Positions 783 to 63,136 of a DNA stretch of 64,000 nt are shown here, piece after piece (the stretch's first letter is position 1; each line of letters opens with the position of its first letter). The stretch lies in the NCBI RefSeq assembly GCF_050320075.1, contig NZ_CP190018.1; one strand, given 5' to 3'. Origin of the DNA: Escherichia coli (GTDB lineage Bacteria > Pseudomonadota > Gammaproteobacteria > Enterobacterales > Enterobacteriaceae). Both the position numbers and the translations under genes were made by a program. The notes beneath the pieces are model-generated. The model was not told the origin of the DNA and made no database searches. It saw only the letters and a list, made by a program, of their open reading frames with translations.

Positions 783-815
783 ATGGTTATAGAAGGGGCT
801 GGAAGCCCCTAATTA

Positions 816-2346: not shown

Positions 2347-3265
2347 TTTCCTTCTGTGTTGATTTGTGTGTAGTGATTATTGATCGTGTTGATTAGGTGT
2401 GTAAAGGACTTTTTTCACTACGAAATTCGAAGGTTTTTAGTGTGGTGATTTAGCCTGCTTTATCACTACACGTCTTGCATGAGAATCATGTAGTTACATT
2501 TTGGTAAAATTAGCAAGCTATTAAATAGTGTGTTTATTTTGAAAAAATAATTTTTTGTTGCATTAAAGGAAACTTGTTCAATAAATGATAGAACGTTTAT
2601 TGAGCAACAATTTTGCAGTGATGCGCTATATGCCGCATTACATAAGGCTTTGCTGATGATAATGTAAAAGTGAAGAAAGCTAACATTGCTCTTTTAAGCT
2701 ACTTTTCATTGAATTTTTAGTATGGAATTACATAGGGATAAACTATGAATATTCTATGATTTACACGAGATATTCTTGCTGTTTAATTCCGGCTTTGGAG
2801 ATCAGGCATTCGCAAGAATACGCTAACGCGTTGCCTGAAAAGCCATTGCACATAATAGAGGTGAGCGTATAGCGAACTATCAATGTGATCATTGCACGAA
2901 TGATAATGAGTGGATATAGATTCTATATATCGTTAGATTGTAGTTTGATAGTTAATGTGTAATGTAGATTGTATGAGCGTATAGCGAATGTTAGTTAGAT
3001 CAACAACAAACTAACCTTTAAATCTCTTTTATCTTCTCATAGATATGGCTATGCGTAGCAACCGAAGGTTAGCCAATCATCTCTATGCAGCCGTAAGGCT
3101 GTTTTGCATGTAATAGTTGTTTGTTGTTGTTAGACAGTTACCAATTTATAGATCAGAGATAGATGTGAGCGTTGAGCGATACACTAATCATAACAACATC
3201 TTCTTACTTTTTAGTTAGTTGTTAGTAGGTTATTGTTATGCGCGCTATTAGCGCATGTATAAAGG

Positions 3266-3371
3266 TATCATTTTTATCTAAAGGGCTTTAGACATTTTTG
3301 ATACCTTTTTCATCTCTAAAAAAGTGTAATTTTTATCTAAAGGGGCTTTAGACATTTTTTACACCTTTTTC
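3266..3371. repeat. two direct copies of a ~45 bp repeat, each with palindromic core TCTAAAGG(G)CTTTAGA
   Basis: Copy 1 ~3266..3311 and copy 2 ~3327..3371 are near-identical; cores at 3277..3292 and 3337..3353; extra TCTAAAG half-sites near 3412 and 3487. Operator- or iteron-like. Confidence 0.6.
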
Positions 3372-3515
3372 TGTGCAAGACACTTACCAGTGTGCACAAT
3401 ACTTATGCTTTTCTAAAGCCGGGAATTTTTAAGTTTGATTGATCAATTGTTAACTTTAAAAGTTACTTTTAACAATCACTTAGACGATCTAAAGCCGCAA
3501 TTAACATAATATAAG

Positions 3516-3545
3516 TTGACATGCAAGCACTTTTTACCGTATAGT
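3516..3545 (+). promoter_or_regulatory. sigma70-like promoter candidate (TTGACA, 18 nt spacer, TATAGT)
   Basis: Perfect -35 hexamer at 3516..3521, -10 TATAGT at 3540..3545; transcription would start at the 23 bp tandem repeat. Confidence 0.4.
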
Positions 3546-3553
3546 GCGGGTTT

Positions 3554-3604
3554 CCTACCTACCCAGGAAATGAGTTCCTACCTACCCAGGAAATGAGTTC
3601 CTAC
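3554..3604. repeat. 23 bp tandem repeat CCTACCTACCCAGGAAATGAGTT, about 2.2 copies
   Basis: Exact copies at 3554..3576 and 3577..3599, partial third copy (CCTAC) following. Confidence 0.75.
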
Positions 3605-4556
3605 AATACTATAATTAAACTACAATTAAACTATCTTTTATAAATTCTTTTATCTTTTAAAGAATAATTATAGGGATACCCGTTAGGGAGTCTTCGACTA
3701 TCCCTTAATCTATTGGCATTCGCCAGAACCTTGCACAAGTTAGACTGATGCTTGTCATAACAGATAGTTTTTGTTTTTTGTTAGTAGTTAGCTGATCTAT
3801 GTTCGCTTTCCGCTCACAACGAATATGTAATCTACTATGTGCAAATAGCCTACGGCTTGCGTATGGCTAATAGTCTTGCGCTGTGCGCAGAACGATAATT
3901 AACTAACTACCATCTAACGATTGAAATTTACTTGTGCAATAACCTGAGCATAAGCGAATGGTTGTTAGTGTCTATGCGCTGTGCGCTTCAATAGTTCCAT
4001 TGATGAGGCTTACGCCAATCTAACGATCATCAATCTATTTAAGAGAAAATCTATTGTGCAATACTCTGACGAGTGCAATAACCTTGTGTGCTACGCGTTA
4101 GCGATGTTAGCACATAGACACAGACAACAACCAACAACAAACAAAAAAGAAAGAATGGTTTTAGTAGTTGAAGGTTAAATAAGTTTCTACCGCTTAAATC
4201 AAGCCGTAGGCGAGCTAAACGTATATAAGGTAGGGAAACACTTAGCGGTAATAGATTAGCTCGTTATAGAGCTTCTGAGGAGCTTTACAGGTATTTTATA
4301 AGATGTCTGAAATCAGAGTTTATCTATCCACCATCTTTCCATCATCTGATAAATCAAAAATAAGCCCCTTAAATAAGCCTCTGACGAGATAAACAACCTC
4401 TACATAAGGGAATGTATTGTTTTTATCAAAACCCCCGTCAGAGTGCGATTGAGAGCGTTTTAGACAACAGGGAAGAATTGTACCAGAGTAGGCAGCACAA
4501 AAAGCTAAGAAAAATTATAAGAAATTGAAAATGATCAAGTTTTTTATAAAAGAGGG

Positions 4557-4585
4557 TTGACAAAGCCGCCGTTATGTAGTATTGT
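4557..4585 (+). promoter_or_regulatory. sigma70-like promoter candidate (TTGACA, 17 nt spacer, TATTGT) for the plus-strand operon
   Basis: -35 at 4557..4562, -10 at 4580..4585; first ORF of a co-directional gene string starts ~115 nt downstream. Confidence 0.5.
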
Positions 4586-4701
4586 AAGTAGGGAGGGGAG
4601 AAACATCTCTCTCCATCTAAATAATCAAATCACAGAACACTGCACTTTGAGCCGTCAGGCTGCAAGGTGTGTTTTTCTTTTATCTAAATAAGGAGTTTTT
4701 T

Positions 4702-4884
4702 ATGAAATGGTATACACCGGAACACGTCGTAGAGGCATTTAAAAAAGGTGAGCTAACACGACATCAAGTAAGGATGAACAGGAACACAGCGCGGCGCTGT
4801 GGTTATCCAGAGCGTGAAAAATGCTTTGACGATGCACTAAAAATTATTGATGAACTGCGTAAGGCAGAAGCAGAGAAAGAATAA
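4702..4884 (+). CDS. hypothetical small protein (60 aa)
   Basis: AGGAG 6 nt upstream of ATG 4702 (MKWYTPEHV...); first gene after promoter 4557. Confidence 0.5.
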   Translation: MKWYTPEHVVEAFKKGELTRHQVRMNRNTARRCGYPEREKCFDDALKIIDELRKAEAEKE

Positions 4885-4907
4885 TAACAGGAGAAGGAGA
4901 AAACCAA

Positions 4908-5084
4908 ATGAATATTAATTTTGATTCTGCAACTTATAACGCGTTGTTAAATCGTGCAAAGGCAGAAGGGAAATCAATTCCAAAACTTGTTAATGAATTA
5001 CTAATTACAGTCCTTACAAAGGAGGAACTAAATGAACCAAAACACCAAAACAATTGCCGAAGCAAAAGCGCAATGCCTCAATAA
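4908..5084 (+). CDS. ribbon-helix-helix-like small DNA-binding protein (58 aa), not in ORF track
   Basis: GGAGAAGGAGA before ATG 4908; MNINFDSATYNALLNRAKAEGKSIPKLVNELL resembles CopG/Arc-type RHH N-terminus; 3-prime end overlaps the next gene by 53 nt in another frame. Confidence 0.45.
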   Translation: MNINFDSATYNALLNRAKAEGKSIPKLVNELLITVLTKEELNEPKHQNNCRSKSAMPQ

Positions 5085-5697
5085 GAAAGATAGTAAACAA
5101 ACATATGTAGTAGTTGAACAATGGCTGAAGATGTTTAAAAAGTGGTTCTCACCGTCAGGTAAGGAATACACCGCGACACTTCCAGCCGTTGAAATCTACA
5201 GTTACGTAGCTGGGTTCAATGAACAAGGGCAAGAATGTTACGCCAATCAAAAAACATTAGCTAATATTGGAATGGTTAGTGATCGTCAGGTGCGTAATAT
5301 TATAAATATGTTTATTGATATGGGTGTTCTTTCTGTAGAGGCACGGGACGGGCAAACATCACTCTATAAAGCATTACCCTTTACAGATGCACACATCACA
5401 CCACCGGAAGACGTAAAAACCTCTGTAAACGTAGAACAGCCTGCACCTGAAACACAGGAACCGTTAGAAGCGACACACTCTATTGAGCAGGAAACACAGG
5501 CAGAAATCACGGAACAATCTGATCTTTTTACATGGCTTATTTCCATAGACAGCCAAAAGCCTATGCAAGAAGAAACAGAAAATTTTATAAAACGTGCACT
5601 GACCTCGAAGAGGATAATTCTTGAAGATGATGCTTTTAATGCACTGATGATAGCCCTGAGAAAAGAAAGTGAAATCTATGACTCAATACCATTTTAA
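5032..5697 (+). CDS. hypothetical protein with winged-helix-like N-terminus and acidic C-terminus; possible replication initiator or organiser
   Basis: Strong AAGGAGGA before ATG 5032; segment ANQKTLANIGMVSDRQVRNIINMFIDMGVLS resembles winged-helix DNA-binding domains of phage/plasmid Rep-type proteins. Assignment is by resemblance only. Confidence 0.45.
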   Translation: MNQNTKTIAEAKAQCLNKKDSKQTYVVVEQWLKMFKKWFSPSGKEYTATLPAVEIYSYVAGFNEQGQECYANQKTLANIGMVSDRQVRNIINMFIDMGVLSVEARDGQTSLYKALPFTDAHITPPEDVKTSVNVEQPAPETQEPLEATHSIEQETQAEITEQSDLFTWLISIDSQKPMQEETENFIKRALTSKRIILEDDAFNALMIALRKESEIYDSIPF

Positions 5698-5709
5698 GGA
5701 GAATAAAAA

Positions 5710-5967
5710 ATGAAATACAACCTGACATTAAACAAACGAACATTCGAAATTACAGAAAGCGGCTACACACTGGCAAAACAGCTTGCTGATAGCAATTATG
5801 AGCTACCCGCGATTATCAGCTTTCAGGAGTTACCTCATAGTAAAGAACACACACAGCACTGGTTAAATCACCTGAGCCATTTTGGGGTAATTAAGTATGA
5901 GGCTGTGAATAGTCAGACGTTCCGTTTGCTTGAGATAAGCCCTTTCGAATTGTGGGTGGCGCTGTGA
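5710..5967 (+). CDS. hypothetical protein (85 aa)
   Basis: ORF track; GGAG upstream; co-directional operon member. Confidence 0.5.
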   Translation: MKYNLTLNKRTFEITESGYTLAKQLADSNYELPAIISFQELPHSKEHTQHWLNHLSHFGVIKYEAVNSQTFRLLEISPFELWVAL

Positions 5968-6170
5968 CCATATTCGATAGCGAATTTTCACAAGAAACCT
6001 TTCTGCAATATTTACGGGAAAGAACGGGAATGATTCTGTTTGATTCTGAGTTTTCCGGTGTGGTAGGTGAGCAATTTTTATATGCTCTTCTCGATAGCCT
6101 AAGTAAACAAGGATTATTGCAGTATACCAAAACTCATATGAAAGCATTCAGAATCGACTCTGTAGCTTAA
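5952..6170 (+). CDS. hypothetical protein (72 aa, GTG start) with internal FDSEFS...FL.Y.L duplication
   Basis: ORF track; start codon is GTG overlapping the upstream stop; internal ~45 nt direct repeat at DNA level. Confidence 0.3.
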   Translation: MGGAVTIFDSEFSQETFLQYLRERTGMILFDSEFSGVVGEQFLYALLDSLSKQGLLQYTKTHMKAFRIDSVA

Positions 6171-6206
6171 AACAAACAACTATCAAACATCTTGAAGGGT
6201 GAAACA

Positions 6207-6347
6207 ATGGAAAGCTTAATATTTTTCTTAGTATTTATGATCGCTTCCTTTTTTAACACTGCAACAAGAAAAACAAAACGAAGGGGAAGCAATGAGCAAG
6301 AAAAAAGGCAAGAAAAACGTAATAACAACTATTGGCGAAGCATGTGA
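6207..6347 (+). CDS. candidate small single-pass membrane peptide (46 aa), not in ORF track
   Basis: ATG 6207 after AAGGG; MESLIFFLVFMIASFF hydrophobic helix then a basic tail (RKTKRRGS...); overlaps the start of ORF 6292 in another frame, so only one of the two may be real. Confidence 0.25.
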   Translation: MESLIFFLVFMIASFFNTATRKTKRRGSNEQEKRQEKRNNNYWRSM

Positions 6348-6672
6348 TCAGTATGCGTTAAACAATCCTCGCAAATATAATTATGAGCATGATGCACAAC
6401 CAGGCGAGGAATTGATCTTTATACTTGAAGAACCAAGCCCAGAATTAACAGACGAAGAATTATCACTCATTCAAAGTATGGACGGTGTTTACTTTAATCC
6501 GCGCCCACGCAAAACAACGGTTATAGATTCCAGTCTTCTGAAAAGATGGCAGTGTTTGGGTTTTCAGGATATGCACCACTTTAGGGGGTATATGGCTCTT
6601 AACAGTCTGCAATATGCAGGGGTGAGAGAAACCGAATTACTTCTGCTTGATAAAATAAAAATCGACGATTAA
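6292..6672 (+). CDS. hypothetical protein (126 aa)
   Basis: ORF track; AAGGGGA 5 nt upstream of ATG. Confidence 0.5.
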   Translation: MSKKKGKKNVITTIGEACDQYALNNPRKYNYEHDAQPGEELIFILEEPSPELTDEELSLIQSMDGVYFNPRPRKTTVIDSSLLKRWQCLGFQDMHHFRGYMALNSLQYAGVRETELLLLDKIKIDD

Positions 6673-6713
6673 CAGCGTTTGCTGAATATAACCCTTAACA
6701 AAAGGAAAATAAA

Positions 6714-6935
6714 ATGATTAACAAAGCAATTTTAGAGACAACCACTTTTCACGATCTTAAACTTCTTTCTGAATGCTTCATAAGCCTGATTGAACGTGCA
6801 CAGGAAGAAAACGATCTCGGTTTACTCGATGATATTATAGACAACATTGCAACTTATAAAATCCCGCTCACTATTGCTATGAAGAAAGCTCGTGAAGCAC
6901 AACAACAATTAGAACAATCAGAGGAAGTGGCATAA
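6714..6935 (+). CDS. hypothetical protein (73 aa)
   Basis: ORF track; AAGGAAA before ATG; co-directional. Confidence 0.45.
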   Translation: MINKAILETTTFHDLKLLSECFISLIERAQEENDLGLLDDIIDNIATYKIPLTIAMKKAREAQQQLEQSEEVA

Positions 6936-7243
6936 TGAGCGAAGTACACAACGTAACTATTGAAATGATGGATCTGGTTATTGATTTACAGAAAGCAGTA
7001 AACGCGGCTCTGACTTTTCCAAGCGAGCTAACCATCACACAGGCGGTTATTAATCTGGAATCGACGCGGGAAGCACTGCAACTACTTATTGCAGCGTGCG
7101 AAGAGAGCGAAGGTGCACAGATTGAAGCTGATGACCTTTCTAATCTGATCATCGTCATTCATGACACCACTGAAATCATGAAAGAAGCGGTAGCAGATCT
7201 GCAACCCCTCATTAATGAATTAATCGATAAGGCTAACAACTAA
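6935..7243 (+). CDS. hypothetical acidic protein (102 aa)
   Basis: ORF track; start overlaps upstream stop (ATAATG), suggesting translational coupling. Confidence 0.5.
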   Translation: MSEVHNVTIEMMDLVIDLQKAVNAALTFPSELTITQAVINLESTREALQLLIAACEESEGAQIEADDLSNLIIVIHDTTEIMKEAVADLQPLINELIDKANN

Positions 7244-7452
7244 TGTCAAAAACTAAACGTGTGCGCCTTCTGGCGCTCACAGAAGAAGGGAAAGCGGGTA
7301 ATTGTTTCACAGTAGGTAAAGTGTATACCGGCTTACTCGACACTTACACCCGCCTGATGCACGTAACCGATGATAACGGTAACGATCAAACAATCGTTTT
7401 AGATGGTAATTGCGTATTTGGTGAGTGGGAACTGACAACCGAAAAAAGTTGA
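7243..7452 (+). CDS. hypothetical protein (69 aa)
   Basis: ORF track; start overlaps upstream stop (TAATG). Confidence 0.5.
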   Translation: MSKTKRVRLLALTEEGKAGNCFTVGKVYTGLLDTYTRLMHVTDDNGNDQTIVLDGNCVFGEWELTTEKS

Positions 7453-7471
7453 AAATAATTGCATTTACCTA

Positions 7472-7500
7472 TTGACTTTTACTAACAGAAATGTTAGAAT
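7472..7500 (+). promoter_or_regulatory. near-consensus sigma70 promoter (TTGACT, 17 nt spacer, TAGAAT)
   Basis: -35 at 7472..7477, -10 at 7495..7500; followed by ~820 nt without any ORF of 60 codons or more on the plus strand. Confidence 0.55.
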
Positions 7501-7506
7501 AATAAA

Positions 7507-8291
7507 TGTTGGGTTTGGAATCGAAAATAGGTGTTAGCTGGCGTTAATCCTTCTCCCGATTCTAATCCTACACGAAAGCGGGGTAGACCTCAAGGGGTCG
7601 CGCCCTATCTAACCTATCCCGCTTTCCCTTTACAGTGATTTTTTAGAAATTGTTTCCCTCGTTAATAGTTTCATTTTATTTTCCTTATTGCTTTATCAAA
7701 ATTGTGTCTTAAGAATGCAGGGGCTACGGATTTGGCCCCTCATCTTTTTAACCAACTGCGAAGCATGAAACACTTTCTAAAAACACTGTTTACAGTGTCT
7801 ATAAACCCCGTATAAACAAATAACGGTGTATATCTGTTTCTTGACAACAGTTTTCTACTAAGCTTAAAGCTGAATATGTTTTTGTTTGTTGGTGTTTATT
7901 AAGGTGCCAATCTTAGAACGCGAAAGCGTGGATGATCCCCGAAATCATCTCGGCACCGCCTCCTATTAAAATGAGAATCCAAAAGGTTTGAAAGTTAATA
8001 GGTGATTCCTGAAAGTCTGATCGATGCATCCACATTGTGAAAGACAGCGATTAGCCGTCGCACGAATAACAGGTTTATAGATTCCTCTCCAAAGGGGGCG
8101 ACCTCCTAAGCGCCTACTCCCTGTAAGCCTGTTATTCACCCCTCAAGGGTATATAACAATAAGCAATCTTATTCTTATATGTCCTCCTCTTTAAGTTCAT
8201 ATAAACTGCGATTTAGTAACACTCTATAACATCCTTCAAATGTTGTATTCATAAAGCCGGAAGCTTTCCCCTTCCGGTTTTATTTTTATCA
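7507..8291 (+). ncRNA. candidate structured leader or noncoding RNA region
   Basis: ORF-poor; stem-loops at 7575..7626 (GAAAGCGGG / CCCGCTTTC), 7719..7749 (AGGGGC, 10 nt loop, GCCCCT then T-run) and 8065..8136 (AATAACAGG / CCTGTTATT); ends at terminator 8257..8291. Boundaries and function are inferred. Confidence 0.3.
8257..8291 (+). terminator. rho-independent terminator-like hairpin (CCGGAAG, loop, CTTCCGG, then T-run)
   Basis: Inverted repeat with following TTTTATTTTTAT, just upstream of the 8331 ORF. Confidence 0.5.
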
Positions 8292-8330
8292 GCACTAAAC
8301 AAGACTGTTAGGAATAAAGGTAAAGCAATA

Positions 8331-8546
8331 ATGCAAAATCTCATTCTAAAGAATGGTAACGAAGAATTGGTTATCACTGATGAAACATTCAATGCTACGG
8401 CTTATATGCTGGGGATCACTCCCACAGAATTGAAAAAACATTGTGATAAGCTTTTTAAGTCTGCTGATGAACAGAAACCTACTATGCAGGATCTGATTAA
8501 AGCAAAAGCAGAACAAATCAAACAATCCAAAAAAGGAAACTATTAA
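8331..8546 (+). CDS. hypothetical protein (71 aa)
   Basis: ORF track; immediately precedes the capsid-like gene pair. Confidence 0.5.
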   Translation: MQNLILKNGNEELVITDETFNATAYMLGITPTELKKHCDKLFKSADEQKPTMQDLIKAKAEQIKQSKKGNY

Positions 8547-8548
8547 TT

Positions 8549-8920
8549 ATGGCTATTATTAATATGAGCGATCTGTTTCCAGTTCGCAAATCATTTACCG
8601 ATATCGTTTCATATGCAACTGATGAGTTCGGTTGTGTGCAATCTTTTACCGTTGATCTGGCGGTTGATGTTGAATGCGGCGATCTGATTACCAGTGACGG
8701 CGCTGAATATGTAAGCGGCGGCGATGTTCTTGTAGTTGTGTCTGATGCGGTATCCGCTGGCGACGCTAAAACCGTTAACGTGCTGCGTAGCAATGCCGGA
8801 CTGGTTTGCATCAAGTCCGATGCTCTGAATGTTGAAGGCGCTGTGAAAGAAGCTGCTATTGCTGCCCTGGCTGCAAAAGGTTTCCAGATGGCTGGTTTTA
8901 ACACTGTATTCACATCTTAA
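8549..8920 (+). CDS. putative virion structural protein (123 aa), possibly head-decoration-like
   Basis: Small Gly/Ala/Val-rich protein directly upstream of and coupled to the 342 aa gene; codon usage is strongly biased toward highly-expressed E. coli codons. Resemblance to a lambda D-type decoration protein is by size and arrangement only. Confidence 0.4.
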   Translation: MAIINMSDLFPVRKSFTDIVSYATDEFGCVQSFTVDLAVDVECGDLITSDGAEYVSGGDVLVVVSDAVSAGDAKTVNVLRSNAGLVCIKSDALNVEGAVKEAAIAALAAKGFQMAGFNTVFTS

Positions 8921-8938
8921 TATAAAGGAATAAAAATA

Positions 8939-9967
8939 ATGATTATTGGTAATGAATCCGTCGATCTGGCTCCGCTGTTTAGTCTGCACGACTCTCGCAA
9001 CTTCCTGTTAACTTCTCTCGACTTTACTGATCCGGTAGGTGTGAGTTCTCATAAAGTGGCTGTTAGCCAACTGGTGGAAACTAACGAATCTCTGTTCAAC
9101 AAAGAAACCTCTCGTTTCTCTTCTGAACATAACGTGACTAAACGTGAACAGGGTAAAGAATTTTTAGTAGAGATCCCCTACTTCCTGCGTGAAGATATGA
9201 TTAAGCCGCAAGACGTGCAAGGCAAACGTAAACCAGGCGCTACCGTTGAAGAAACTCTGACAGATATCTACGCGGAATATGTTGCTAAGCACCACATTGC
9301 TTTCCAGCGTACTAAAGAAAGCGTGCTGGCTGCTTCCCTGTTCTCTGGTCGCACTTACACCCCTAAAACTGATGATGTGCTGATCCAGTGGGGCGATCTG
9401 TTTAGTGTTGTTCCGATGACTGCAACCATCGACGCATCAAGCACCACGCCTTCTATGGTGTTCCAGCAATTCGATCAGATGCATACAGACGTTATTACTA
9501 AAGCACAAAGCCAGGCGGCTGCTGTAGAACGTATCGTTGTATTCTGTAAACCTGCTGCTTTCAACGCTATCCGTTACAGTGCTGGCATGGTTAACGCGTT
9601 CCAGTATGCAAGCCCTACCGATGACGCAAACATCGTTTATAGCGTGCGCTCCCTGCTGCCAGGTGTGACTACCTTCACTATTCCTGGGACTAACATCGAT
9701 ATCGTTAAAGTTACTGATCCGCTGCTGCTGGCTCATATGACTTCTGATGCGGTTGCTGTTCCGAAGTTCGCTAAAGGCTCTAACGTCTATCAGAACATTT
9801 TCAGCGCTCCTTCTTCAACGTTCGACCTGCTGAATTCTGGCGCGGCTGAATATTACAGCTATGCGTTTAGCCCAGCACGTAACGACGCTGTAAACGTAGT
9901 TACTGAGAATAGCCAGATGGTTGTAAACCACGGCGTAGGCTTCACTGTACAGATCACAGTAGCGTAA
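8939..9967 (+). CDS. putative major capsid-like protein (342 aa)
   Basis: Size and position (after a ~120 aa protein) resemble a lambda D/E-type head gene pair; AAGGAA RBS; codons strongly optimised (CGT, CTG, TCT, AAC, GAA) unlike neighbouring genes. Not confirmed by homology. Confidence 0.45.
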   Translation: MIIGNESVDLAPLFSLHDSRNFLLTSLDFTDPVGVSSHKVAVSQLVETNESLFNKETSRFSSEHNVTKREQGKEFLVEIPYFLREDMIKPQDVQGKRKPGATVEETLTDIYAEYVAKHHIAFQRTKESVLAASLFSGRTYTPKTDDVLIQWGDLFSVVPMTATIDASSTTPSMVFQQFDQMHTDVITKAQSQAAAVERIVVFCKPAAFNAIRYSAGMVNAFQYASPTDDANIVYSVRSLLPGVTTFTIPGTNIDIVKVTDPLLLAHMTSDAVAVPKFAKGSNVYQNIFSAPSSTFDLLNSGAAEYYSYAFSPARNDAVNVVTENSQMVVNHGVGFTVQITVA

Positions 9968-10120
9968 TAAAGCGTTAATAGTCGTTTCCTGTGCGACTGG
10001 AAATAAAACAGGCAATAAGGGCAAAAGGGATTATTAAACCTGTAGCGCAAATACAGTAAACAATCTCTTTTGCCCTTTTTTCGTTTATACCGTCTATTAA
10101 AATATTGTGAGAGAAAAATC

Positions 10121-10312
10121 ATGAGCGAACAAAACAACAATCCAGTTGAGATCCTGAAAGCTGTTTCCACCTTACCGGAAGATATTCTGAATATCTCTCA
10201 AGTGTGTAAGTTTTTAGGGATCTCTAATACTGCTGTACGTCAAAGAATCTTCACTACTGGCTGCTCAGCTATGGAAGCAGTGCAATACTACGTAACAAAA
10301 CAAAACAAATAA
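10121..10312 (+). CDS. hypothetical small protein (63 aa), possible HTH
   Basis: Internal ATG of ORF 10070..10312 (MSEQNNNPVEIL...); segment ISQVCKFLGISNTAVRQRI is helix-turn-helix-like. Confidence 0.35.
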   Translation: MSEQNNNPVEILKAVSTLPEDILNISQVCKFLGISNTAVRQRIFTTGCSAMEAVQYYVTKQNK

Positions 10313-10330
10313 AAGGTAAAGGAAAATATT

Positions 10331-12172
10331 ATGGATTTAAACATCTCAACCTTAACAAACAAGGTTGTATTTAAAGTTGATTTTGCATCATTACAGAAAG
10401 CAAGGGACGCAGGGAAGAAATTTCAGAAAGAAATGGAAAACCTAACCAATCCAACATTGAAAGGGAAGAAGGCTAAACGAGCTATAGACGAGGCTCATGA
10501 TCTGGTAAAGGCTCGTAAAGCTGCACAGGCTAAAACTGATGCCAAAGCGTCAGACAAGCAAGCTCAAACCGATAAGAAGAACGCTGATAAGGTGGCAAAG
10601 GCAGAAGCTAAAGCGAAGGCTAAAGCCGCTATAGCTGCCGATAAACAGATCCGCGCTAAAGCGACAATAGCAGAGAAAGCAGAGATTAAGCGCCAGCAAG
10701 CTTTCAGACAGCTTGAAGGGATTAAGAAAGGGCGTATGGGCGACGGTATGGACTCCGCCCAATACTACAAAACGTTGCAATACATCAAAGCACAAACGGC
10801 AGCGTATGAGAAAGGCGCTATTAGTCAGGCTAAGATGAATCACCTGATCCGTGATCGTATCACGTTAGAACGCCGTGCGGCTGCTGTAAAAGCTCGCCAG
10901 GTGGCGGCTGATGGCGGTAAATATCCACATATGGCTAAACAGCTTAAAGGCGGTCATATAGGCGGTGGTGTAGGTGCAATGGTGGGCGGTGCCGCTCTCA
11001 CTGCTGCCACTCTCGGCGGTGCTGCGATATTCAATACCGTAACCGATCAGGCAAGCAAGATCACAGACACTAACCGCAAGGCAAAGGCTGTCAACGTAAA
11101 CACTAACGCCCTGTTAGCACTTAATCAGTACGGCTTAGAACACGGTGTCGATAGTTCCGTAGACCAACGTCAAGACAACCTTAAAGACGTTCAAGAGCGT
11201 TTAGGTGAATCCGTAGGGAATACCAAATGGGACGCTAAGAAAGGTCGCTGGGCTGGCGGTAATGGTGCCGTCGATAACATCCTTAATAAATATGGTTGGA
11301 GTCCTGAACAGATTAAAGGTTTCCAGACTGATCCATTAGGTTTCCTGGGCGCTGTAGTGAAAGAAGGAGAACGCCGTGGACTCTCTGATCAGGAGCAGGG
11401 TCACATCCTTGAAGACCTTGGAAATGATTTACAATATTTCCGTGGTGCTTTCAGTCGTAACGGTGAAGAGCTAAATAAAACCATCGTTAAGATGCAAAAA
11501 GCCAATGCCACCTATGCGCAAGCGGATCTTGACGCTGCTGAACGTCTGCAAGCTGTACAGGCTAATATGAATATGGCCTGGGAAGGTAGTAAGAAAGCTA
11601 TCATGACGGGATTCGGTGAAGAGTTCGACGCTCAGGCTGGTGAAGAGTGGGCGCAAATGTTGAAAGATCTCAATCCTCTGTTTAAAGAACTTGGAAGCTC
11701 AACGGCTGAAATGATGAGCGCCTTTGCTGGTGCTGTATCGTGGCTTACTGCTGCATACCAGAATATAAATCCAGAGAACAAACATGAAAACCTTGATTCG
11801 TCCGGTATGTATTATAAGGATTCGTTTGTAGGCGGCATGGTTGATTGGGGTCGTAGTGCTTTAGGCTTATCGCCTATCCCTGGCACGGAAGACAAGCCAA
11901 CGACTGGCGGAACTGCAATTCAGAACTATTCAAGCCCGTCCGATAACGTGCAATCCCTGAAAGAGAACGTTAGCCGTGATCTGAACACTACCCCATCTAT
12001 GACGTATGCGCCAAGCATTGTCGTAAACGTGCCAGAAAGTAAGGTTGATGTGAATATCGCTCCTGATGGTAGTCAGCTTGGATCATACCTCGATTACAAA
12101 GTGGGAAGTATCCAACAAGATTTTGAACGTAGTTTCACGTTGGCGGCTCTGTCTGGGCAAGCACCAAGTTAA
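10331..12172 (+). CDS. large coiled-coil / glycine-zipper protein (613 aa); tape-measure-, scaffold- or DNA-pilot-like
   Basis: Lys/Ala-rich coiled-coil stretch (KAKAKAAIAADKQIRAKATIAEKAEIKRQQ), then glycine-zipper hydrophobic segment GGHIGGGVGAMVGGAALTAATLGGAAIF. Function inferred from composition only. Confidence 0.5.
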   Translation: MDLNISTLTNKVVFKVDFASLQKARDAGKKFQKEMENLTNPTLKGKKAKRAIDEAHDLVKARKAAQAKTDAKASDKQAQTDKKNADKVAKAEAKAKAKAAIAADKQIRAKATIAEKAEIKRQQAFRQLEGIKKGRMGDGMDSAQYYKTLQYIKAQTAAYEKGAISQAKMNHLIRDRITLERRAAAVKARQVAADGGKYPHMAKQLKGGHIGGGVGAMVGGAALTAATLGGAAIFNTVTDQASKITDTNRKAKAVNVNTNALLALNQYGLEHGVDSSVDQRQDNLKDVQERLGESVGNTKWDAKKGRWAGGNGAVDNILNKYGWSPEQIKGFQTDPLGFLGAVVKEGERRGLSDQEQGHILEDLGNDLQYFRGAFSRNGEELNKTIVKMQKANATYAQADLDAAERLQAVQANMNMAWEGSKKAIMTGFGEEFDAQAGEEWAQMLKDLNPLFKELGSSTAEMMSAFAGAVSWLTAAYQNINPENKHENLDSSGMYYKDSFVGGMVDWGRSALGLSPIPGTEDKPTTGGTAIQNYSSPSDNVQSLKENVSRDLNTTPSMTYAPSIVVNVPESKVDVNIAPDGSQLGSYLDYKVGSIQQDFERSFTLAALSGQAPS

Positions 12173-12228
12173 TGATAAAGAGAATGTTTAATCACCATTT
12201 AAAACACTCTTATAAGGAATTAAGCATA

Positions 12229-12259
12229 TAAGAGGCTCCCATTACAAGGAAGCCTCTTT
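12229..12259. terminator. bidirectional terminator-like hairpin between convergent 613 aa gene and integrase
   Basis: Inverted repeat AGAGGCT(CC) ... (GGA)AGCCTCT flanked by A/T-rich runs. Confidence 0.4.
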
Positions 12260-12279
12260 ATTGCGCCTATGGCGTTGTT

Positions 12280-13441
12280 TTAAGCCTTAAAATCAATATT
12301 TAATTCATATCTTACTAATTCTACATATTCAGCTAATTCTGGAATGCTTGCCCCTTGTGAGTAGGTGCGAAAGGCTTCTGTTTTAGCTCTCTGCTCTGTA
12401 TGTCCGGTAATGGCACCGATCCGCTGTTCAGGCACTCCGGCACGATCAAGACAAGTGATAAACATCCCGCGCAAGCTGTGAAAGCATTGTCTATTTGTAG
12501 CGATTGGCAAGACGCTACGACGTAAACGTGAGAACGCTTGAGAATAGAACGGGCCTTTCTTACCGTCGATTCTTTTTACTTTGTTCGAGTGAGGGAACAA
12601 ATATTCACCATAATTATGATTTAAATATTCATCGACAATAATCGATAGTCTCGAATGTATCGGAACGTGCCTGATCCCTGCTTTAGTCTTACTTTTGCTG
12701 ATATAAAAACAGCGTATTCCTTCCACAGTTACAACCTCTGACTTTTTCAGACTTGCCAGTTCGTCTAATCTGCATCCTGAAAACAAGCCCATTAAAATAA
12801 TATTTCTGATCTCCGGCTCCGCTGCATCAAGTAGCTTTTGCATTTGTTCAGGTGTAAACGGTTGATAACTCTCGATTGTGCGACGTGCTTCGAGATTATG
12901 ACCGTGAAAAGGGTTACTGTCTGGTATTCCGTCATAACGGCGTTTAGCAAATTCATAGAGCGATCCTAAGCATGTAAGCCAGTTTTGACGAGATTGATCG
13001 GCTGCTCCTCGTTGCTTCTGGTCATCTAAGAATACTGTTACAAGCCGTCTGCCTATTTTCTCAATATGAATATCATCTTTCTGAATGCTTTGTAAAAATA
13101 GCTCAACGGCCCTTGCTGATTTCTGTAGTGTTGAGTATGAACGACGCTCTCTGTAGCATTCGGCGTATTCGTCACGTATTAAGCATAGGGAAGGCGATGC
13201 ATAACCGCGTTTTACGGCTCTTTGCGTGTTTTTATTGGCCCTTGCCTCTGAATGTAAGGATTCAATAGCTTGTTGTAACCTCCTTTCGGGGTTATCAGGA
13301 TTATGTTTCCGCTTTAGTTCCTCCCATTCTAATAATAGATGGTTTCTGAATCTTCTCGCCTCATTCAGATCTCGTGTAGATGTGCTTTTTCTCCACAACT
13401 TGTAAGGGTAAAGATGACGTAAGTATTTAGGAACAAAAATC
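12280..13441 (-). pseudogene. tyrosine recombinase / integrase with 5-prime end disrupted by IS1
   Basis: C-terminal catalytic motifs of tyrosine recombinases (R in GCRLDEL, HSLRGMF, GHTEQ...FRTYSQG). The ORF's first 5 codons (to 13455) lie inside the IS1 inverted repeat, so the native start and promoter are missing. Confidence 0.8.
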
Positions 13442-13496
13442 GGTGATGCTGCCAACTTACTGATTTAGTGTATGATGGTGTTTTTGAGGTGCTCCA

Positions 13497-13772
13497 GTGG
13501 CTTCTGTTTCTATCAGCTGTCCCTCCTGTTCAGCTACTGACGGGGTGGTGCGTAACGGCAAAAGCACCGCCGGACATCAGCGCTATCTCTGCTCTCACTG
13601 CCGTAAAACATGGCAACTGCAGTTCACTTACACCGCTTCTCAACCCGGTACGCACCAGAAAATCATTGATATGGCCATGAATGGCGTTGGATGCCGGGCA
13701 ACCGCCCGCATTATGGGCGTTGGCCTCAACACGATTTTCCGCCATTTAAAAAACTCAGGCCGCAGTCGGTAA
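13497..13772 (+). CDS. insA: IS1 InsA
   Basis: 91 aa product matches remembered IS1 InsA ([32 protein letters not shown]...). Confidence 0.95.
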
Positions 13773-14194
13773 CCTCGCGCATACAGCCGGGCAGTGACGT
13801 CATCGTCTGCGCGGAAATGGACGAACAGTGGGGATACGTCGGGGCTAAATCGCGCCAGCGCTGGCTGTTTTACGCGTATGACAGGCTCCGGAAGACGGTT
13901 GTTGCGCACGTATTCGGTGAACGCACTATGGCGACGCTGGGGCGTCTTATGAGCCTGCTGTCACCCTTTGACGTGGTGATATGGATGACGGATGGCTGGC
14001 CGCTGTATGAATCCCGCCTGAAGGGAAAGCTGCACGTAATCAGCAAGCGATATACGCAGCGAATTGAGCGGCATAACCTGAATCTGAGGCAGCACCTGGC
14101 ACGGCTGGGACGGAAGTCGCTGTCGTTCTCAAAATCGGTGGAGCTGCATGACAAAGTCATCGGGCATTATCTGAACATAAAACACTATCAATAA
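13691..14194 (+). CDS. insB: IS1 InsB reading frame (expressed as InsAB by frameshift)
   Basis: 167 aa ORF overlapping insA in the -1 frame, typical IS1 organisation. Confidence 0.9.
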
Positions 14195-14478
14195 GTTGGA
14201 GTCATTACCCTTTGGCTATGAATAATTCTGATTTGACGAATCCAGAGGACTTATAGATCACTGTCTCCGGTTTAATAACTTGAATATAATCTAATTCTAA
14301 TATTTTAAACGCCTAATGATTTTTCAACACGGGTGTTATTCTGCTTACGCAAAAATTTTATTTTTAATTATATTTCATTATTATTTCATCAATGTATTCT
14401 TTGGATTTTGCTTATAATAATAATGGAAGGGATGATTATAAATGAATGCGTTATTGCATTTACACTCAGGATGAATAT

Positions 14479-15111
14479 ATGGGAAAGATTAAAATTGTAG
14501 TTTCAGATCAGCAGCCGTTTATGATTGATGGGATAATTGGATTTCTCGGACATTATCCCGATTTATATGAGGTTGTTGGGGGCTATAAAGATCTGAAGAA
14601 AGCTATCGCGGAGTGTAACAAATCTGCAGCCCAAATATTTATTTTAGGAGAATTTGCAGGTGGAATGATGGGGTCCGAACTCATAAAATGGGTTAAATCG
14701 CATAAAATAGATGCTCATATTATTACATTTGTAGCAAAAATGCCGTATATTGATTCAATAAAATTGCTTGAAGCCGGTGCGAAAGGATGCGTATGGAAAA
14801 CCAGTCATCCGGCGAAACTAAATCGCGCTATTGATTCGATTAGTAATGGTTACACTTATTTTGATAGTGTACATATGGATTGTGAAAAAATATCTTCAAG
14901 ATATTCCTCTGATAATCAACTTACAAATCGTGAGTCTGAAATACTACAACTCATAGCTGATGGGAAAACAAACAAAGAAATCGCTAATTTCTTGCAGTTA
15001 AGCAGGAAAACAGTCGAAACTCATAGACTCAATATCATGAAGAAATTAGATGTTCACAGTGGTATCGAGTTGATCAAAACAGCTTTACGTATGGGTGTTT
15101 GCACTATATAA
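14479..15111 (+). CDS. ygeK: LuxR-family response regulator (ETT2 remnant)
   Basis: 210 aa from [12 protein letters not shown]; C-terminal LuxR-type HTH ([39 protein letters not shown]). Confidence 0.8.
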
Positions 15112-15129
15112 AAAAAAGAGGCTTTAGGT

Positions 15130-15633
15130 TTATTTTGCTAAAGCCTTACGCTTGTCTATTTCATTAAGTCTGGTATATACAACATATATTTTTTTTGCAT
15201 ATTGCAGCCTCTTTTTTTTGTTTTCCATTGCAAAACCCGCGTTATATGTCCCCAGACATTGCCACGTTACCCCACAACGTGAAAAATGATTATATAAAAT
15301 CTCGGTCCCTATTTTAATGTTCAGACAGGGGTTATCTAACAAATCTCGTCCATCTTTTATTATTCCACGTTTTTTTAACATGGGAATGTGCATCTGGTTT
15401 ATCTGCATTAAACCATAATCAACACTCTTTATATTGTTTTTCTTATCCCTGTTTTTGCCGATGCTATCATTTTTTAAATTACTTTCAACAAGAGCGATAG
15501 CTTTGATCAAATTTGGTTCGATTCTGAAAATTGATCCTGCTTCATTAAAGCAAGCGCTACTGGCGAAAGACATTTTTGTAATTAATATAGAAAACATGAA
15601 GATGGATAAGATTTTAACTTTGGGTAAGCGCAT
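15130..15633 (-). CDS. pbl: IagB-like lytic transglycosylase (T3SS-associated)
   Basis: Signal peptide plus soluble lytic transglycosylase motifs (ALVESN..., GLMQIN, TYNAG). Confidence 0.8.
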   Translation of the reverse strand: MRLPKVKILSIFMFSILITKMSFASSACFNEAGSIFRIEPNLIKAIALVESNLKNDSIGKNRDKKNNIKSVDYGLMQINQMHIPMLKKRGIIKDGRDLLDNPCLNIKIGTEILYNHFSRCGVTWQCLGTYNAGFAMENKKKRLQYAKKIYVVYTRLNEIDKRKALAK

Positions 15634-15716
15634 ATATTTTTATGTGTAGGATTGAAGGAAAGGAACGAGATACTAATATATTCAGTATCTCGTTAATCAT
15701 TTAAGTGGTCAATTAT

Positions 15717-15935
15717 CTACCATTCCAGTTCATAGTAAGGAGAGATAGGATTATCTTTCGAATACATATCATTTTGAAAAGATGCCATCCATGTTGAAAC
15801 TATAAATGCTTGTATTTGATCTGTATCAGTAGTACTGGTGGTGATGTGTTTATCTAATGAAACGACTTCATCACCCGTTGCGGTTGCTATATTTAAACTT
15901 TGAGAAAAATTATTCATATTGATTGGATTAGTCAT
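15717..15935 (-). CDS. ygeI: hypothetical ETT2 protein (72 aa)
   Basis: Size and position match remembered ygeI between pbl and ygeH. Confidence 0.55.
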   Translation of the reverse strand: MTNPINMNNFSQSLNIATATGDEVVSLDKHITTSTTDTDQIQAFIVSTWMASFQNDMYSKDNPISPYYELEW

Positions 15936-16102
15936 AAAATTCCCTTTTTTATTTGTCCAGGCCAATAGCCTATACACAATACTTTTTAATCTAGAGTATT
16001 TGATATATATTGCAATAAGGTAATTATCTTAGATGTTTTCATCTCTGTTGTTGACATAACCAGTTGCATACATCTAAACAATAAAATTGCGACAATAAAG
16101 AT

Positions 16103-17479
16103 TTATCGCATACAAATTCTCGTCAGTTGCTTTAGTTTCAAAATGTTGTCAATTATAACTCGATGGCTTTCACTCGAAGTTTCTTTATAGTAGAGTTTCA
16201 TGTTGCTTTTGAGCGGGTTAGGCACATACATATCTACACACTCTTTTATCACAACTGCTTTTCGTCTTCTGGGTTCGAGTTGTAGTGATTTGTCTATACA
16301 AATCCTTGCCTCTTCAATTCTTTCATTATGAAAATTGACAAGTGCTCTATAGTAGTAGAGAGAGGCTATATCAGTTGTGTGTATCTTAGCCTGTTCAAAT
16401 AAGATATGAGATACTTTTGCTTGTCCAGACAGACCAGTTATCAGTCCCATAATAGCTAAAATTTTTCCATCGACATTGGTTATGTCTGATACATAATGTA
16501 AAAGCTCTAATGCTTTTTGAGCAGCAAGTTCAAGTTCATACTTTCCATGAAGTGCCAAAGACATATGGCATTCCGCTAGCAGACAATAACATTCTATTTT
16601 TAGCGTCTGTATATCACTTTTATTTTGTAATCCATCAAATATAGCCATAGCCCTGTAAATGCTTTCAGGAGTAAACTCGTAAAGTTCTTTCTTACCAGCC
16701 AACAGTTCATCTGATAAATAATGATTCTTATAACCTTGGTCCGGTTTAGCTAATCTTACAGAACGCTCTGGATTATGTACCGTTTGAAGGATATTATCTA
16801 TAATAAATTGTGATGTGTTATGTAGTTCATCAACAGGAAGATGATTACTGGCGATGAGGAAAAGATTTTTAGCGTCGATCAGTTCAATGTATAAAGTTTT
16901 CACCGCGTTATTCTGGTTTATTCTTCCTGTAACGAAATAATCTGGCTTGAATCTTCTCAAAAATGAATTTTGCGATATGTGATCATTACAAAAATTTGTC
17001 GCAGCCATCGGATAGGTATAAAGGCCATCGATTTTTTTATTCGAAATGTTTTGCACTAATTCCTGATTAAGTATTAATGGATCCAGAGTATTCAATGAAG
17101 TGGTGAAAGGAAATATAGCTATGGAATAGTCTGAAGTGTTATCTTCATTTATTTTAGTTTTGAAAACCTGTCCACTGAAACGATAACCTTTCCGGTAGAT
17201 TGTTTCTATGCAACGATCATAGCCAATTTTTTCAAAAATGCAGCGCAAAGAATAGATACATCTTGTCAGGGACTCGTCACTTACAATAATATTTTTCCAT
17301 ACTGATTCGATGATCATATCTTTCAGGACAACATGACCAGCGGATTCAAGTAATACGATCAATACTCCTAACTCTTTCGGTGGAATATAAATCTGCTCAT
17401 TTCCTTGAGTAAGAATTCCATCTTCCGTGAGCGTTAATCCCTCGAGAAAATGATATGAGAATTTATTTTCTAAGTCCAT
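16103..17479 (-). CDS. ygeH: HilA-like transcriptional regulator (OmpR/ToxR-type winged helix plus TPR region)
   Basis: 458 aa; N-terminal winged-helix DNA-binding domain, large C-terminal helical region. Confidence 0.85.
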
Positions 17480-17813
17480 TAGTTATCCTCTATGAAAAAA
17501 TTGGTTTCTTGCATCCTGCATAAGCAATAGAAATTGTGGCTATTCATATTTATGTGTCATTAATGCTACAGGAGTTTACATTCGACATATCTATGATTGT
17601 GTTCACTAATTTATCTTAGGAATTCAGTGATGTAATCTGAAATAGCCTTATTCAATTTTGATAAAATAGATTGTTCTCTAACGCGTTGAAAAATAGTAAT
17701 TTATAGTGTGTTCTTAACTGTTTTAAGATGTTGATTTAAGAAAACATAAGAGAAGCTGGTCATAGTGGTTAACTGCACTATAACCAGCAATTTTTACCAA
17801 ATGCTTGTAATGC

Positions 17814-18305
17814 TTAGCCATTATCTTCTGAATTATCGGTTAAGAGTTCAATATATGCCTGCGCTTTGCTCTTAACACTTTCATCCTCACAATTGTTAAT
17901 AATATGATAGAAACATTGCATTGCGTTATCGATATTTTTAGCCCCAATTTGACATTGACCCATACGATAAATAACTGAATAGTCATCATACGGGGAGTAA
18001 TTGTAACTTAGTTTGTAAAGGTCATATGCTTGTTGATATTTCTTTTTTGACTGGCATACTGATGCAAAACCTTTTAGATATTCATGATTTTCGAACGCAT
18101 AAATGCACAGAAATTTATAATAAATTTCTGCGTCCGTTATATTACCTTTTTCATGGTAGTCGAATGCATATGCATATATTCTATCAAGGATATCAGGAGT
18201 CAATCCATGTAGTAATGCCAGATTTTCTCCTTGTGATAATGCGTGTTTTAGTTGACTTGCCCATTCATCACTGTTATTGAATATTTCAAGTGTATCTGTG
18301 CTCAT
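17814..18305 (-). CDS. ygeG: SycD/LcrH-like tetratricopeptide T3SS chaperone
   Basis: 163 aa from MSTDTLEIF; TPR-like repeats; the ORF track's longer form has an N-terminal extension. Confidence 0.8.
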   Translation of the reverse strand: MSTDTLEIFNNSDEWASQLKHALSQGENLALLHGLTPDILDRIYAYAFDYHEKGNITDAEIYYKFLCIYAFENHEYLKGFASVCQSKKKYQQAYDLYKLSYNYSPYDDYSVIYRMGQCQIGAKNIDNAMQCFYHIINNCEDESVKSKAQAYIELLTDNSEDNG

Positions 18306-18528
18306 AATATTCCTCTGTGATGTGTTTCGTGATGCTAAATTATTATTAATTGACTCATTATTTTTTGCATTTATCTTTTTTGAATTATGAGTTTTAAGCT
18401 TGCATTGCTTAAGGGTATATTGGTTCATTATTAGTAAAAATACTGACCACTATAAACCAATAATGTCATTAGTTTTTTTCTAATATTCACCTTATTAGTT
18501 ATCTTATTTACGACATTTCATAAATGCC

Positions 18529-19020
18529 TTAATATGCATGACCTTGATTCATATTATCAATTTCCCTTTTTTCGATGAAAATTAAAAAGGGGATTTTTGC
18601 GAAGGGTAGTAAGTCGTCTAGTTTTTTTTCTTTATTATGTCTGGTGACGAGGGGGGATAGAACGTCGGTGCATATAGTAGAGAATTTATTCAGGTCTAAA
18701 TTATTCTCTATTTTGGCCAGTTTTATGAGTTCATTTGTAGCCATACTCATTAAATCATCTGTTATCGGAAATTTATATATGCTCATAGCCGATAATATTG
18801 CTTGCTGAATTATTTCTTCAGAAATATCCGCTATCTTTATTGACAAATCATGTGTTAGATATTTTCCTCCAAGAGATTCTTGTTCAATATAATTTAAACC
18901 AGACCTCATCGTAATTTTAACTGGATTCACGTATTTCTCTTCATTTTTCTTATTTTTGTTCTCCTGATCAGGAACTAATGGTTGCAGTGGTAGGCTATTA
19001 TTAATATTTCGTGGCTTCAT
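18529..19020 (-). CDS. ygeF: hypothetical ETT2 protein (163 aa)
   Basis: ORF track; position upstream of ygeG. Confidence 0.55.
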   Translation of the reverse strand: MKPRNINNSLPLQPLVPDQENKNKKNEEKYVNPVKITMRSGLNYIEQESLGGKYLTHDLSIKIADISEEIIQQAILSAMSIYKFPITDDLMSMATNELIKLAKIENNLDLNKFSTICTDVLSPLVTRHNKEKKLDDLLPFAKIPFLIFIEKREIDNMNQGHAY

Positions 19021-62840: not shown

Positions 62841-62917
<77 letters not shown>

Positions 62918-62949
62918 TCACCGTACTGCTTTATTTCATCAAATTTGAT

Positions 62950-63026
<77 letters not shown>

Positions 63027-63059
63027 TCACCGTACTGCTTTACTTCATCAAATTTTAAT

Positions 63060-63136
<77 letters not shown>

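Follow-up and report, generated by a model that had tools for sequence, protein, structure and literature searches.

The window analysed here, a stretch of 64,000 nucleotides from the Escherichia coli contig NZ_CP190018.1 (NCBI RefSeq assembly GCF_050320075.1), carries a chromosomal island at positions 61-13441 that we read below as a phage satellite. The subject of this analysis is the 613-aa protein encoded by the last plus-strand gene of the island, next to a convergent integrase gene (12280-13455, minus strand). Judged by its alignments, this protein is a full-length homologue of the tail tape-measure protein (TMP) of Stephanstirmvirinae phages. RefSeq labels the product 'hypothetical'. 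An earlier reading made from the letters of this DNA, here called the sequence-only reading, had suggested that the protein may be a virion component, and no confident homology to a non-virion family has emerged. Scans with Pfam, NCBIfam and PADLOC all gave no match. The gene and its recognizable segments are as follows.

10331-12172, plus strand: gene of the TMP homologue (613 aa), complete from ATG to stop.
10331-10450, plus strand: TMP aa 1-40, N-terminal motif common to phage TMPs (33-38% identity in the alignment; weak N-terminal alignment to phi92 gp134).
10466-10735, plus strand: TMP aa 46-135, Lys/Ala-rich basic helical 'ruler' (from composition; model helix 76-132).
10736-10945, plus strand: TMP aa 136-205, satellite-conserved segment (from identities by region in the alignment).
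10949-11041, plus strand: TMP aa 207-237, Gly-rich hydrophobic segment or 'glycine zipper' (from composition and alignment).
11051-11560, plus strand: TMP aa 241-410, best-conserved domain (predicted local distance difference test, pLDDT, 86-96; 39-42% identity to phage TMPs).
12011-12169, plus strand: TMP aa 561-613, C-terminal segment that ends in an invariant L..SGQ motif common with phage TMPs (from alignment).

The open reading frame (ORF) and its composition bear out the arrangement that had first been noticed, a Lys/Ala-rich region followed by a glycine zipper. Ala and Lys make up 28% and 23% of aa 46-135, while Gly and Ala account for 29% and 20% of aa 206-240. The sole hydrophobic stretch of the protein (Kyte-Doolittle above 1.0 over 19 residues) lies at aa 208-239, GHIGGGVGAMVGGAALTAATLGGAAIFNTV, and has GxxxG-type spacing. 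The N-terminal 205 aa are strongly basic, with a net charge of +24. In an AlphaFold2 model computed with 42 homologues as input, most of aa 18-510 is helical, and the helices at 18-39, 42-68, 76-132, 142-160 and 166-193 lend support to the proposed coiled coil in the form of long predicted helices. An unstructured Gly-rich linker follows helical aa 18-193, the C-terminal third is of low confidence, and the model is confident for aa 240-410 alone (pLDDT 86-96). Foldseek comparison of this model with the PDB returned chance helical matches only (E > 0.4).

Homology searches place the protein among tail proteins. PHROG 16051, annotated as 'tail length tape measure protein', matches it with an E-value of 2e-64, as does gp134 of phage phi92 (659 aa; chain V of the solved entry 21vq) with 1e-46. 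A profile of the protein family matches phi92 gp134 end to end at 5e-157, and a profile search of the PDB for other solved TMPs gave phi92 gp134 alone. By BLASTP, the 613-aa protein aligns with anhysbys gp254 (662 aa) at 5e-58. A tblastn search of 50,697 phage records found 134 that match, at approximately 30% identity over aa 235-611, and every matching record that was examined is a lytic myovirus of ~150 kb and of Stephanstirmvirinae type (Phapecoctavirus, Justusliebigvirus and their relatives from Klebsiella). Overall identity between the satellite TMP and the phage TMPs is about 30%, with 39-42% in aa 241-410. The two are colinear from end to end, sharing the N-terminal 40 aa, the basic helices, the hydrophobic segment, the central domain and the terminal L..SGQ. 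It is this colinear homology that bears out the tape-measure option, the first in the list of roles that the sequence-only reading had offered. We regard the homology and the shared architecture as established.

The features that first drew attention to the protein are not peculiar to the island. Phage TMPs have a hydrophobic segment of small residues at the same alignment position as the Gly-rich segment of the satellite protein, and the net charge ahead of this segment is +20 to +27 in all homologues, phage TMPs included. The basic N-terminus and the hydrophobic segment, being shared with phage TMPs, therefore reflect ordinary TMP functions and not a satellite novelty. A profile search of the full library with the TMP yielded 325 representatives, among them proteins of 700-2,100 aa whose match covers the hydrophobic segment and the central domain. 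Eight of these long proteins were checked, and they fall in several other PHROG TMP families.

Gene order in the phages points to the same assignment. In anhysbys the order is sheath, tube, tail assembly chaperone, gp254 and baseplate, and in these phages the TMP gene lies between the genes for the tail assembly chaperone and the tube initiator. A phage fragment (L010) has a 54%-identical TMP homologue after a chaperone gene of the Pfam Phage_TAC_15 family, and entry 21vq also holds phi92 gp135, a homologue of solved 'tube initiator' proteins. The island gene differs from these in its surroundings: it lies in a chromosomal island and not in a tail gene cluster, with a gene for a 63-aa helix-turn-helix (HTH)-like protein upstream, in place of a chaperone gene, and the integrase gene downstream, in place of a tube initiator gene.

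At least 120 full-length TMP homologues are available, and satellite and phage copies differ consistently in length. Satellite copies measure 611-635 aa and phage copies 646-662 aa; the 613-aa protein is 46-49 residues shorter than phi92 gp134 and anhysbys gp254. The gap consists mainly of an Arg/Glu-rich helix of approximately 40 aa, which is absent from all satellite clades. The segment at aa 136-205 follows a different pattern of conservation, with 37-79% identity among satellite clades versus 16-18% to phage TMPs, and we consider it a candidate satellite-specific module on the basis of these identities. Among the satellite TMP copies, the ratio of nonsynonymous to synonymous substitution rates (dN/dS) is 0.13-0.28, and the 14 copies inspected are all free of stop codons. 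Because of these values and the narrow range of lengths, the gene is to be regarded, as far as substitution patterns tell, as under purifying selection and functional, and its conservation as established.

The remaining features of the island and its edges are listed below in order of position.

61-78, plus strand: partial left attachment (att) core, 18/22 nt, TTCCCTTCGCCCGCTCCA (from comparison with strain H3).
816-1136, minus strand: YecR-family lipoprotein gene (RefSeq annotation; same place in the Citrobacter relative L011).
1789-2346, minus strand: serine DNA invertase of Hin/Gin type, 184 aa (phrog_125 'DNA invertase', E 3.8e-62).
2347-4668, no strand: ORF-poor, AT-rich region of 2.3 kb (iteron-like direct repeats at 3258-3371 and 3552-3597; 26-nt inverted repeat).
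4908-5084, plus strand: 58-aa early gene (DNA match to Justusliebigvirus phages).
5032-5697, plus strand: replication-initiator-like protein, 221 aa (PHROG replication-initiation families, E 7e-6 to 4e-3).
7453-8330, plus strand: non-coding gap of 880 bp before the structural operon (promoter and hairpins).
8331-8546, plus strand: 71-aa protein, first gene of the structural operon (in all relatives examined).
8549-8920, plus strand: 123-aa protein, possible head decoration protein (directly upstream of the capsid gene, as in phages).
8939-9967, plus strand: major capsid protein, 342 aa, HK97 / lambda gpE type (phrog_29; Pfam Phage_cap_E in relatives).
10017-10083, plus strand: 16-bp hairpin and U-run between the capsid gene and the 63-aa and TMP genes (-26.2 kcal/mol, z -4.8).
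10121-10312, plus strand: 63-aa protein with HTH-like centre, conserved in the family (family alignments; weak HTH Pfam matches, E ~0.1).
12280-13455, minus strand: tyrosine integrase, 5' end replaced by the insertion sequence IS1, 391 aa here (phrog_1, E 4e-37; homology break at 13441 versus H3).
13442-14209, plus strand: IS1 copy that truncates the island (annotation and breakpoint; exact ends inferred from the IS1 terminal sequence and the usual length of 768 bp).

When all ORFs of the island were scanned against PHROGs, the capsid protein and the TMP were the only structural proteins recovered, and none of the annotated ORFs was recognised as a portal, terminase, protease, sheath, tube or baseplate gene. 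The largest ORFs of the island encode 613, 391, 342 and 221 aa. Like the TMP, the capsid protein has its best phage relatives in Stephanstirmvirinae, in this case at approximately 25% identity; it matches phi92 gp124 (PDB 21uy) with an E-value of 1.5e-7, and a profile of its family matches the anhysbys capsid protein with 3.6e-21. The 123-aa protein is possibly a head decoration protein, a weak assignment: a profile match to a phage decoration ORF has an E-value of 0.055, hhalign gave no significant result, and the top Foldseek matches of a model with pLDDT 60 are the decoration chains of Sf14 and Bas63 at E ~0.09. For the 71-aa protein, neither PHROG, NCBIfam nor PADLOC gave a match. We considered the 63-aa protein as a candidate for the tail assembly chaperone and rejected it, since it has no phage homologue and only weak matches to HTH-type Pfam families.

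Several non-coding features suggest how the island could be regulated. The gap ahead of the structural operon holds a sigma70-like promoter (7472-7500), terminator-like hairpins at 7719-7740 and 8251-8283, and a 27-nt block (7530-7556) that is conserved in the relatives L005, L006 and L008. By eye, the alignment of the relatives compared has an apparent hairpin and T-run just ahead of the first structural gene. The gap could encode a non-coding RNA or act as an antitermination leader; an Rfam scan of the island gave no match. No late-promoter motif common to the phage structural region and the island was found, and the phage intergenic regions have ordinary sigma70-like promoters. The hairpin at 10017-10083 is terminator-like and is possibly an attenuator; it may hold expression of the two downstream genes, for the 63-aa protein and the TMP, below that of the capsid gene. 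At the other end of the island, every relative examined has a gene for 186-205 aa at the invertase position. The two copies of the 26-nt inverted repeat (2929-2954 and 3896-3921) lie 941 nt apart in the neighbouring ORF-poor region, and related iterons occur in L006 and L007 at 3582-3704. Possible readings of this region are an invertible segment, an origin of replication or a combination of the two.

The boundaries of the island were resolved by comparison with an intact copy in E. coli strain H3 (NZ_CP010167), which spans 13,559 bp between att repeats and is 99.7% identical to the island in the window. The H3 island is flanked by a 22-nt direct repeat, TCGATTCCCTTCGCCCGCTCCA, which is the 3' end of the tRNA-Gly(CCC) gene glyU; it adjoins actS (ygeR) and the ETT2 region, and its intact integrase has 406 aa. 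A search of the window for a full att site at up to 3 mismatches found none, and the comparison with H3 then revealed the partial left copy and the loss of attR. IS1 replaces the first ~20 codons of the integrase gene, and attR is missing here together with part of the ETT2 region seen in H3. RefSeq annotates the integrase of the window as an intact 391-aa coding sequence that starts inside the end of IS1. To the left of the island (window 1-60 and 2 kb beyond), the DNA encodes hypothetical proteins and is not tRNA-Gly, which suggests a rearrangement, or another island lying in tandem with this one at glyU. On the right, positions 14446-19020 hold low-GC ETT2 type III secretion remnants (a LuxR-type regulator, a lytic transglycosylase, ygeH and ygeG). 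From about 23 kb onwards (23000-64000) GC content climbs to ~50%, and three tandem tRNA-Met genes lie at 62841-63136 on the minus strand.

The island is not confined to this strain. Positions 4000-13500 of the window match the E. coli YZLc1-3 chromosome (NZ_CP123240.1) at 100% identity, and of 5,426 complete E. coli genomes, 54 contain at least 80% of this 9.5-kb query. More distant relatives with the same gene order occur in Klebsiella (L003), Citrobacter (L011), other E. coli (L006-L008), an IMG/VR provirus (L019) and L005, and their TMPs are just 30-36% identical to each other. The statement of the sequence-only reading that no tail genes accompany the gene holds for the copy in the window and fails for three of its relatives, as L005, L006 and L008 have a tube-initiator gene directly after the TMP gene. 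The encoded tube initiator shares 65% identity with anhysbys gp253, and its match to phi92 gp135 has an E-value of 1e-70. The relative L005, a Logan contig of 14,281 bp (SRR16178778), has a 30-nt terminal overlap, which indicates a 14.25-kb circle. Its genes include those for the capsid protein, the TMP, the tube initiator and a 492-aa protein, and the large integrase is missing. L005 could be an excised or plasmid-like form. No relative of the island was found in the plasmid collection, and the 16 IMG/VR loci are mostly provirus calls from isolate genomes, with no sign of encapsidation.

DNA identity ties the island more closely to the same group of phages. Megablast of the whole island against the 50,697 phage records matched 8 records, all of them Stephanstirmvirinae. 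Positions 4894-5060, over the 58-aa early gene, have 95-96% DNA identity to PaulScherrer (bas60_0101) and VEcB, and positions 5127-5387, within the replication-initiator-like gene, have ~91% identity to muut (gp094), inny, Mt1B1_P17 and BI-EHEC. Both patches lie in the same early region of the phage genomes, and identities range over 90-96%. Such values imply, at the level of the DNA, recent recombination between the island and lytic Stephanstirmvirinae phages. Exchange as recent as this also implies that island and phages replicate inside shared host cells, and we regard the phage link as established. The ~150-kb Stephanstirmvirinae phages are strictly lytic.

Taken by its gene content and its relatives, the island is best described as a phage satellite, most likely a parasite of lytic myoviruses of the phi92/phAPEC8 type (Stephanstirmvirinae). 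It is a small integrated element with an integrase and, in the H3 copy, att repeats, and its set of virion and packaging genes is incomplete. Because the island has no portal, terminase, sheath or tube gene, it cannot build a virion alone. A TMP gene without tail genes around it is explained by the element being a satellite-like island, for which the PLEs of Vibrio cholerae are a precedent. We consider it probable that the 613-aa protein is a satellite TMP that replaces the TMP of the helper in chimeric tails, a reading modelled on these elements.

One possible course of events is as follows. Helper infection would lead to expression of the structural operon of the island, that is the 71-aa protein, the possible decoration protein, the capsid protein, the 63-aa protein and the TMP. 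The satellite TMP would then occupy the place of the gp134-type TMP of the helper at the baseplate hub and tube initiator, and the tube and sheath of the helper would polymerise round it to give chimeric tails. These tails would be expected to be slightly shorter, by roughly 5-7 nm or one to two rings of the tube, because the satellite TMP is ~46-49 residues shorter, and they would join capsids, predicted to be small, made of the island's own capsid protein. On infection of a new cell, the TMP would exit the tail first and help to open a path for satellite DNA, with its hydrophobic segment inserting into the envelope. Incorporation into tails, any change in their length and any gain for the satellite are proposed by analogy with the PLEs.

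The precedent itself is well documented. Every V. cholerae PLE encodes a TMP together with a chaperone, and some add a baseplate hub protein (Mathur et al., Nature 2026, PMC12987554). The PLE TMP is 20% identical to that of the lytic helper ICP1 (a value given for PLE11); PLE virions contain the PLE TMP and exclude the ICP1 TMP; PLE tails are ~10 nm shorter for a TMP difference of 95 residues; and deletion of the PLE tmp lowers transduction by 96-99.9% (PMC12987554). The island is like the PLEs in being a satellite of a virulent myovirus with a divergent copy of the helper TMP (20% for PLE11, ~30% here), and in that some members add a second tail-initiation gene, the baseplate hub gene for BhuB in PLEs and a tube-initiator gene here. 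It differs in that PLEs encode a tail assembly chaperone, and none was found in the island; in that PLEs reuse the helper capsid protein via the scaffold TcaP, whereas the island has its own capsid gene; and in host, helper family and integration site. Function has been demonstrated for the PLEs and is inferred for the island. The resemblance, drawn from descriptions of the two, would be functional and not a matter of membership.

Other satellites share single traits with the island. Capsid-forming PICIs (cf-PICIs), like the island, are integrated satellites with their own HK97-type capsid protein. As reportedly described by Alqurainy and co-workers in 2023, cf-PICIs carry a complete head and packaging module of portal, protease, connectors and terminase subunits. 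The island differs from them in having a capsid protein and a possible decoration protein only, with no portal, protease, connector or terminase found; it lacks a complete capsid and packaging module of its own, and no ORF is large enough beyond those of the TMP, integrase and capsid protein. Putative tmp genes have been noted in some cf-PICIs (PMC12987554, Extended Data Fig. 10 legend). The EPIP satellites of Mycolicibacterium are reported to encode a capsid protein and a TMP and to have altered tail length (bioRxiv 10.64898/2025.12.02.691453). They are like the island in that the capsid protein and TMP are both satellite-encoded, and differ in belonging to another phylum, in having a siphovirus-type prophage as helper, and in also encoding a small terminase subunit, adaptor, stopper, scaffold proteins and a serine integrase. 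No ORF of the island has a match, within the PHROGs, to the hallmark families of P4 or classical PICIs. These hallmarks are sid, psu, delta and the alpha primase for P4, and alpA with pri-rep plus terS, ppi or rpp for PICIs.

Several points weigh against a satellite TMP that works in helper tails. The designation of gp134 as 'the TMP' rests on gene order, PHROG labels and presence in the phi92 entry; entry 21vq names the chain just 'Phi92_gp134', and no paper on phi92 gp134 as TMP was found in the literature searched. An identity of ~30% to phage TMPs leaves the fit with the tail of a given helper unproven, and the length gap of ~47 residues is small, its selective benefit not obvious. A tail assembly chaperone, which the PLEs have, was not found in the island, so the TMP would depend on the chaperone of the helper. 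The window copy may be immobile, and is probably stranded, because attR and the start of the integrase have been lost to IS1. Finally, induction, packaging and transfer are events that we infer for this element by analogy.

The alternative that survives best is that the protein serves interference only. The satellite TMP would be a dominant-negative decoy that joins the tail-initiation complexes of the helper, or titrates them, and thereby stops assembly of helper tails; it would protect the bacterial population and have no working part in satellite virions. We judge this unlikely. Interference with tail assembly is known from satellites and defence systems (Rta in PLE11, and Tai/Tab-type systems), the island has no chaperone of its own, and aa 136-205 are unlike phage TMPs, all of which would suit a decoy. 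Against it, both termini, the length of the ruler and the C-terminal, hub-binding end are kept under purifying selection across genera, and some relatives pair the TMP with a tube initiator that is close to that of the helper. The island's own capsid gene implies particles that need working tails, and PADLOC gave no defence family. Decoy and structural roles are not mutually exclusive.

A role in the virion outside the tail is considerably less probable. Here the protein, although derived from a TMP, would be a capsid-internal, pilot or ejection, or scaffolding protein of the satellite's own small capsid, among the roles that the sequence-only reading had raised. The gene shares an operon with the capsid gene and has no tail neighbours in this copy, its basic N-terminal 205 aa could, from their charge, bind DNA, and TMPs are themselves ejected proteins. 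Yet phage TMPs have the same basic N-terminus, the colinearity with gp134 covers the whole protein including its C-terminal end, and relatives retain the order of TMP followed by tube initiator. Searches of PHROG, Pfam, PDB and Foldseek brought up no resemblance to a scaffold or internal protein. The relatives that could be detected are all tail TMPs or satellite versions of such TMPs, and the capsid-internal and scaffold options are without support.

That the capsid and TMP genes are left over from a degraded prophage, the ORF having no current function, is most improbable: the IS1 damage, the missing attR of this copy and the 'hypothetical' label in RefSeq would fit such a remnant, but the same minimal gene set and order recur in several genera with TMPs as divergent as 30-36% identity, dN/dS is 0.13-0.28 with no stop codons, strain H3 has intact att sites and integrase, the related ~150-kb phages are strictly lytic and so offer no prophage source, and the relative L005 assembles as a 14.25-kb circle.

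With a satellite TMP in chimeric tails as the preferred reading, the relatives allow a wider and more tentative proposal. The island could belong to an undescribed satellite family of Enterobacteriaceae (E. coli, Klebsiella, Citrobacter and Pluralibacter) that exploits virulent ~150-kb Stephanstirmvirinae. Its members may swap the head shell (capsid with or without decoration protein) and the tail core (TMP with or without tube initiator) while borrowing the portal, terminase, sheath, tube and baseplate of the helper. The element behind satellite-specific tails may, in this proposal, be aa 136-205, acting through selective incorporation or through a coupling to the heads of the satellite. In the literature searched, neither this island family nor any satellite that uses Stephanstirmvirinae was found described.

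Satellite-encoded TMPs have been demonstrated experimentally just recently, and for Vibrio PLEs only. The 613-aa protein appears to be a new instance of this recently recognised class, in an apparently undescribed satellite architecture. Annotation and satellite-finding pipelines probably miss such islands, because RefSeq calls the TMP 'hypothetical' and neither Pfam nor NCBIfam has a model for it. Candidate helpers are available in public collections, as the BASEL phage Bas60 PaulScherrer shares 96% identical DNA with the island, and the solved phi92 structure contains the helper-type TMP and tube initiator, which makes a test by genetics and cryo-EM feasible. If the satellite TMP does replace that of the helper, the phenomenon known from PLEs would extend to E. 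coli and Klebsiella, and the island would represent a type of satellite that parasitises strictly lytic, therapy-relevant phages. Phages like phi92 and phAPEC8 are often proposed against avian pathogenic E. coli (APEC) and Klebsiella, and in the course of such treatment, islands of this kind could reduce the yield of phage or be passed on by transduction.

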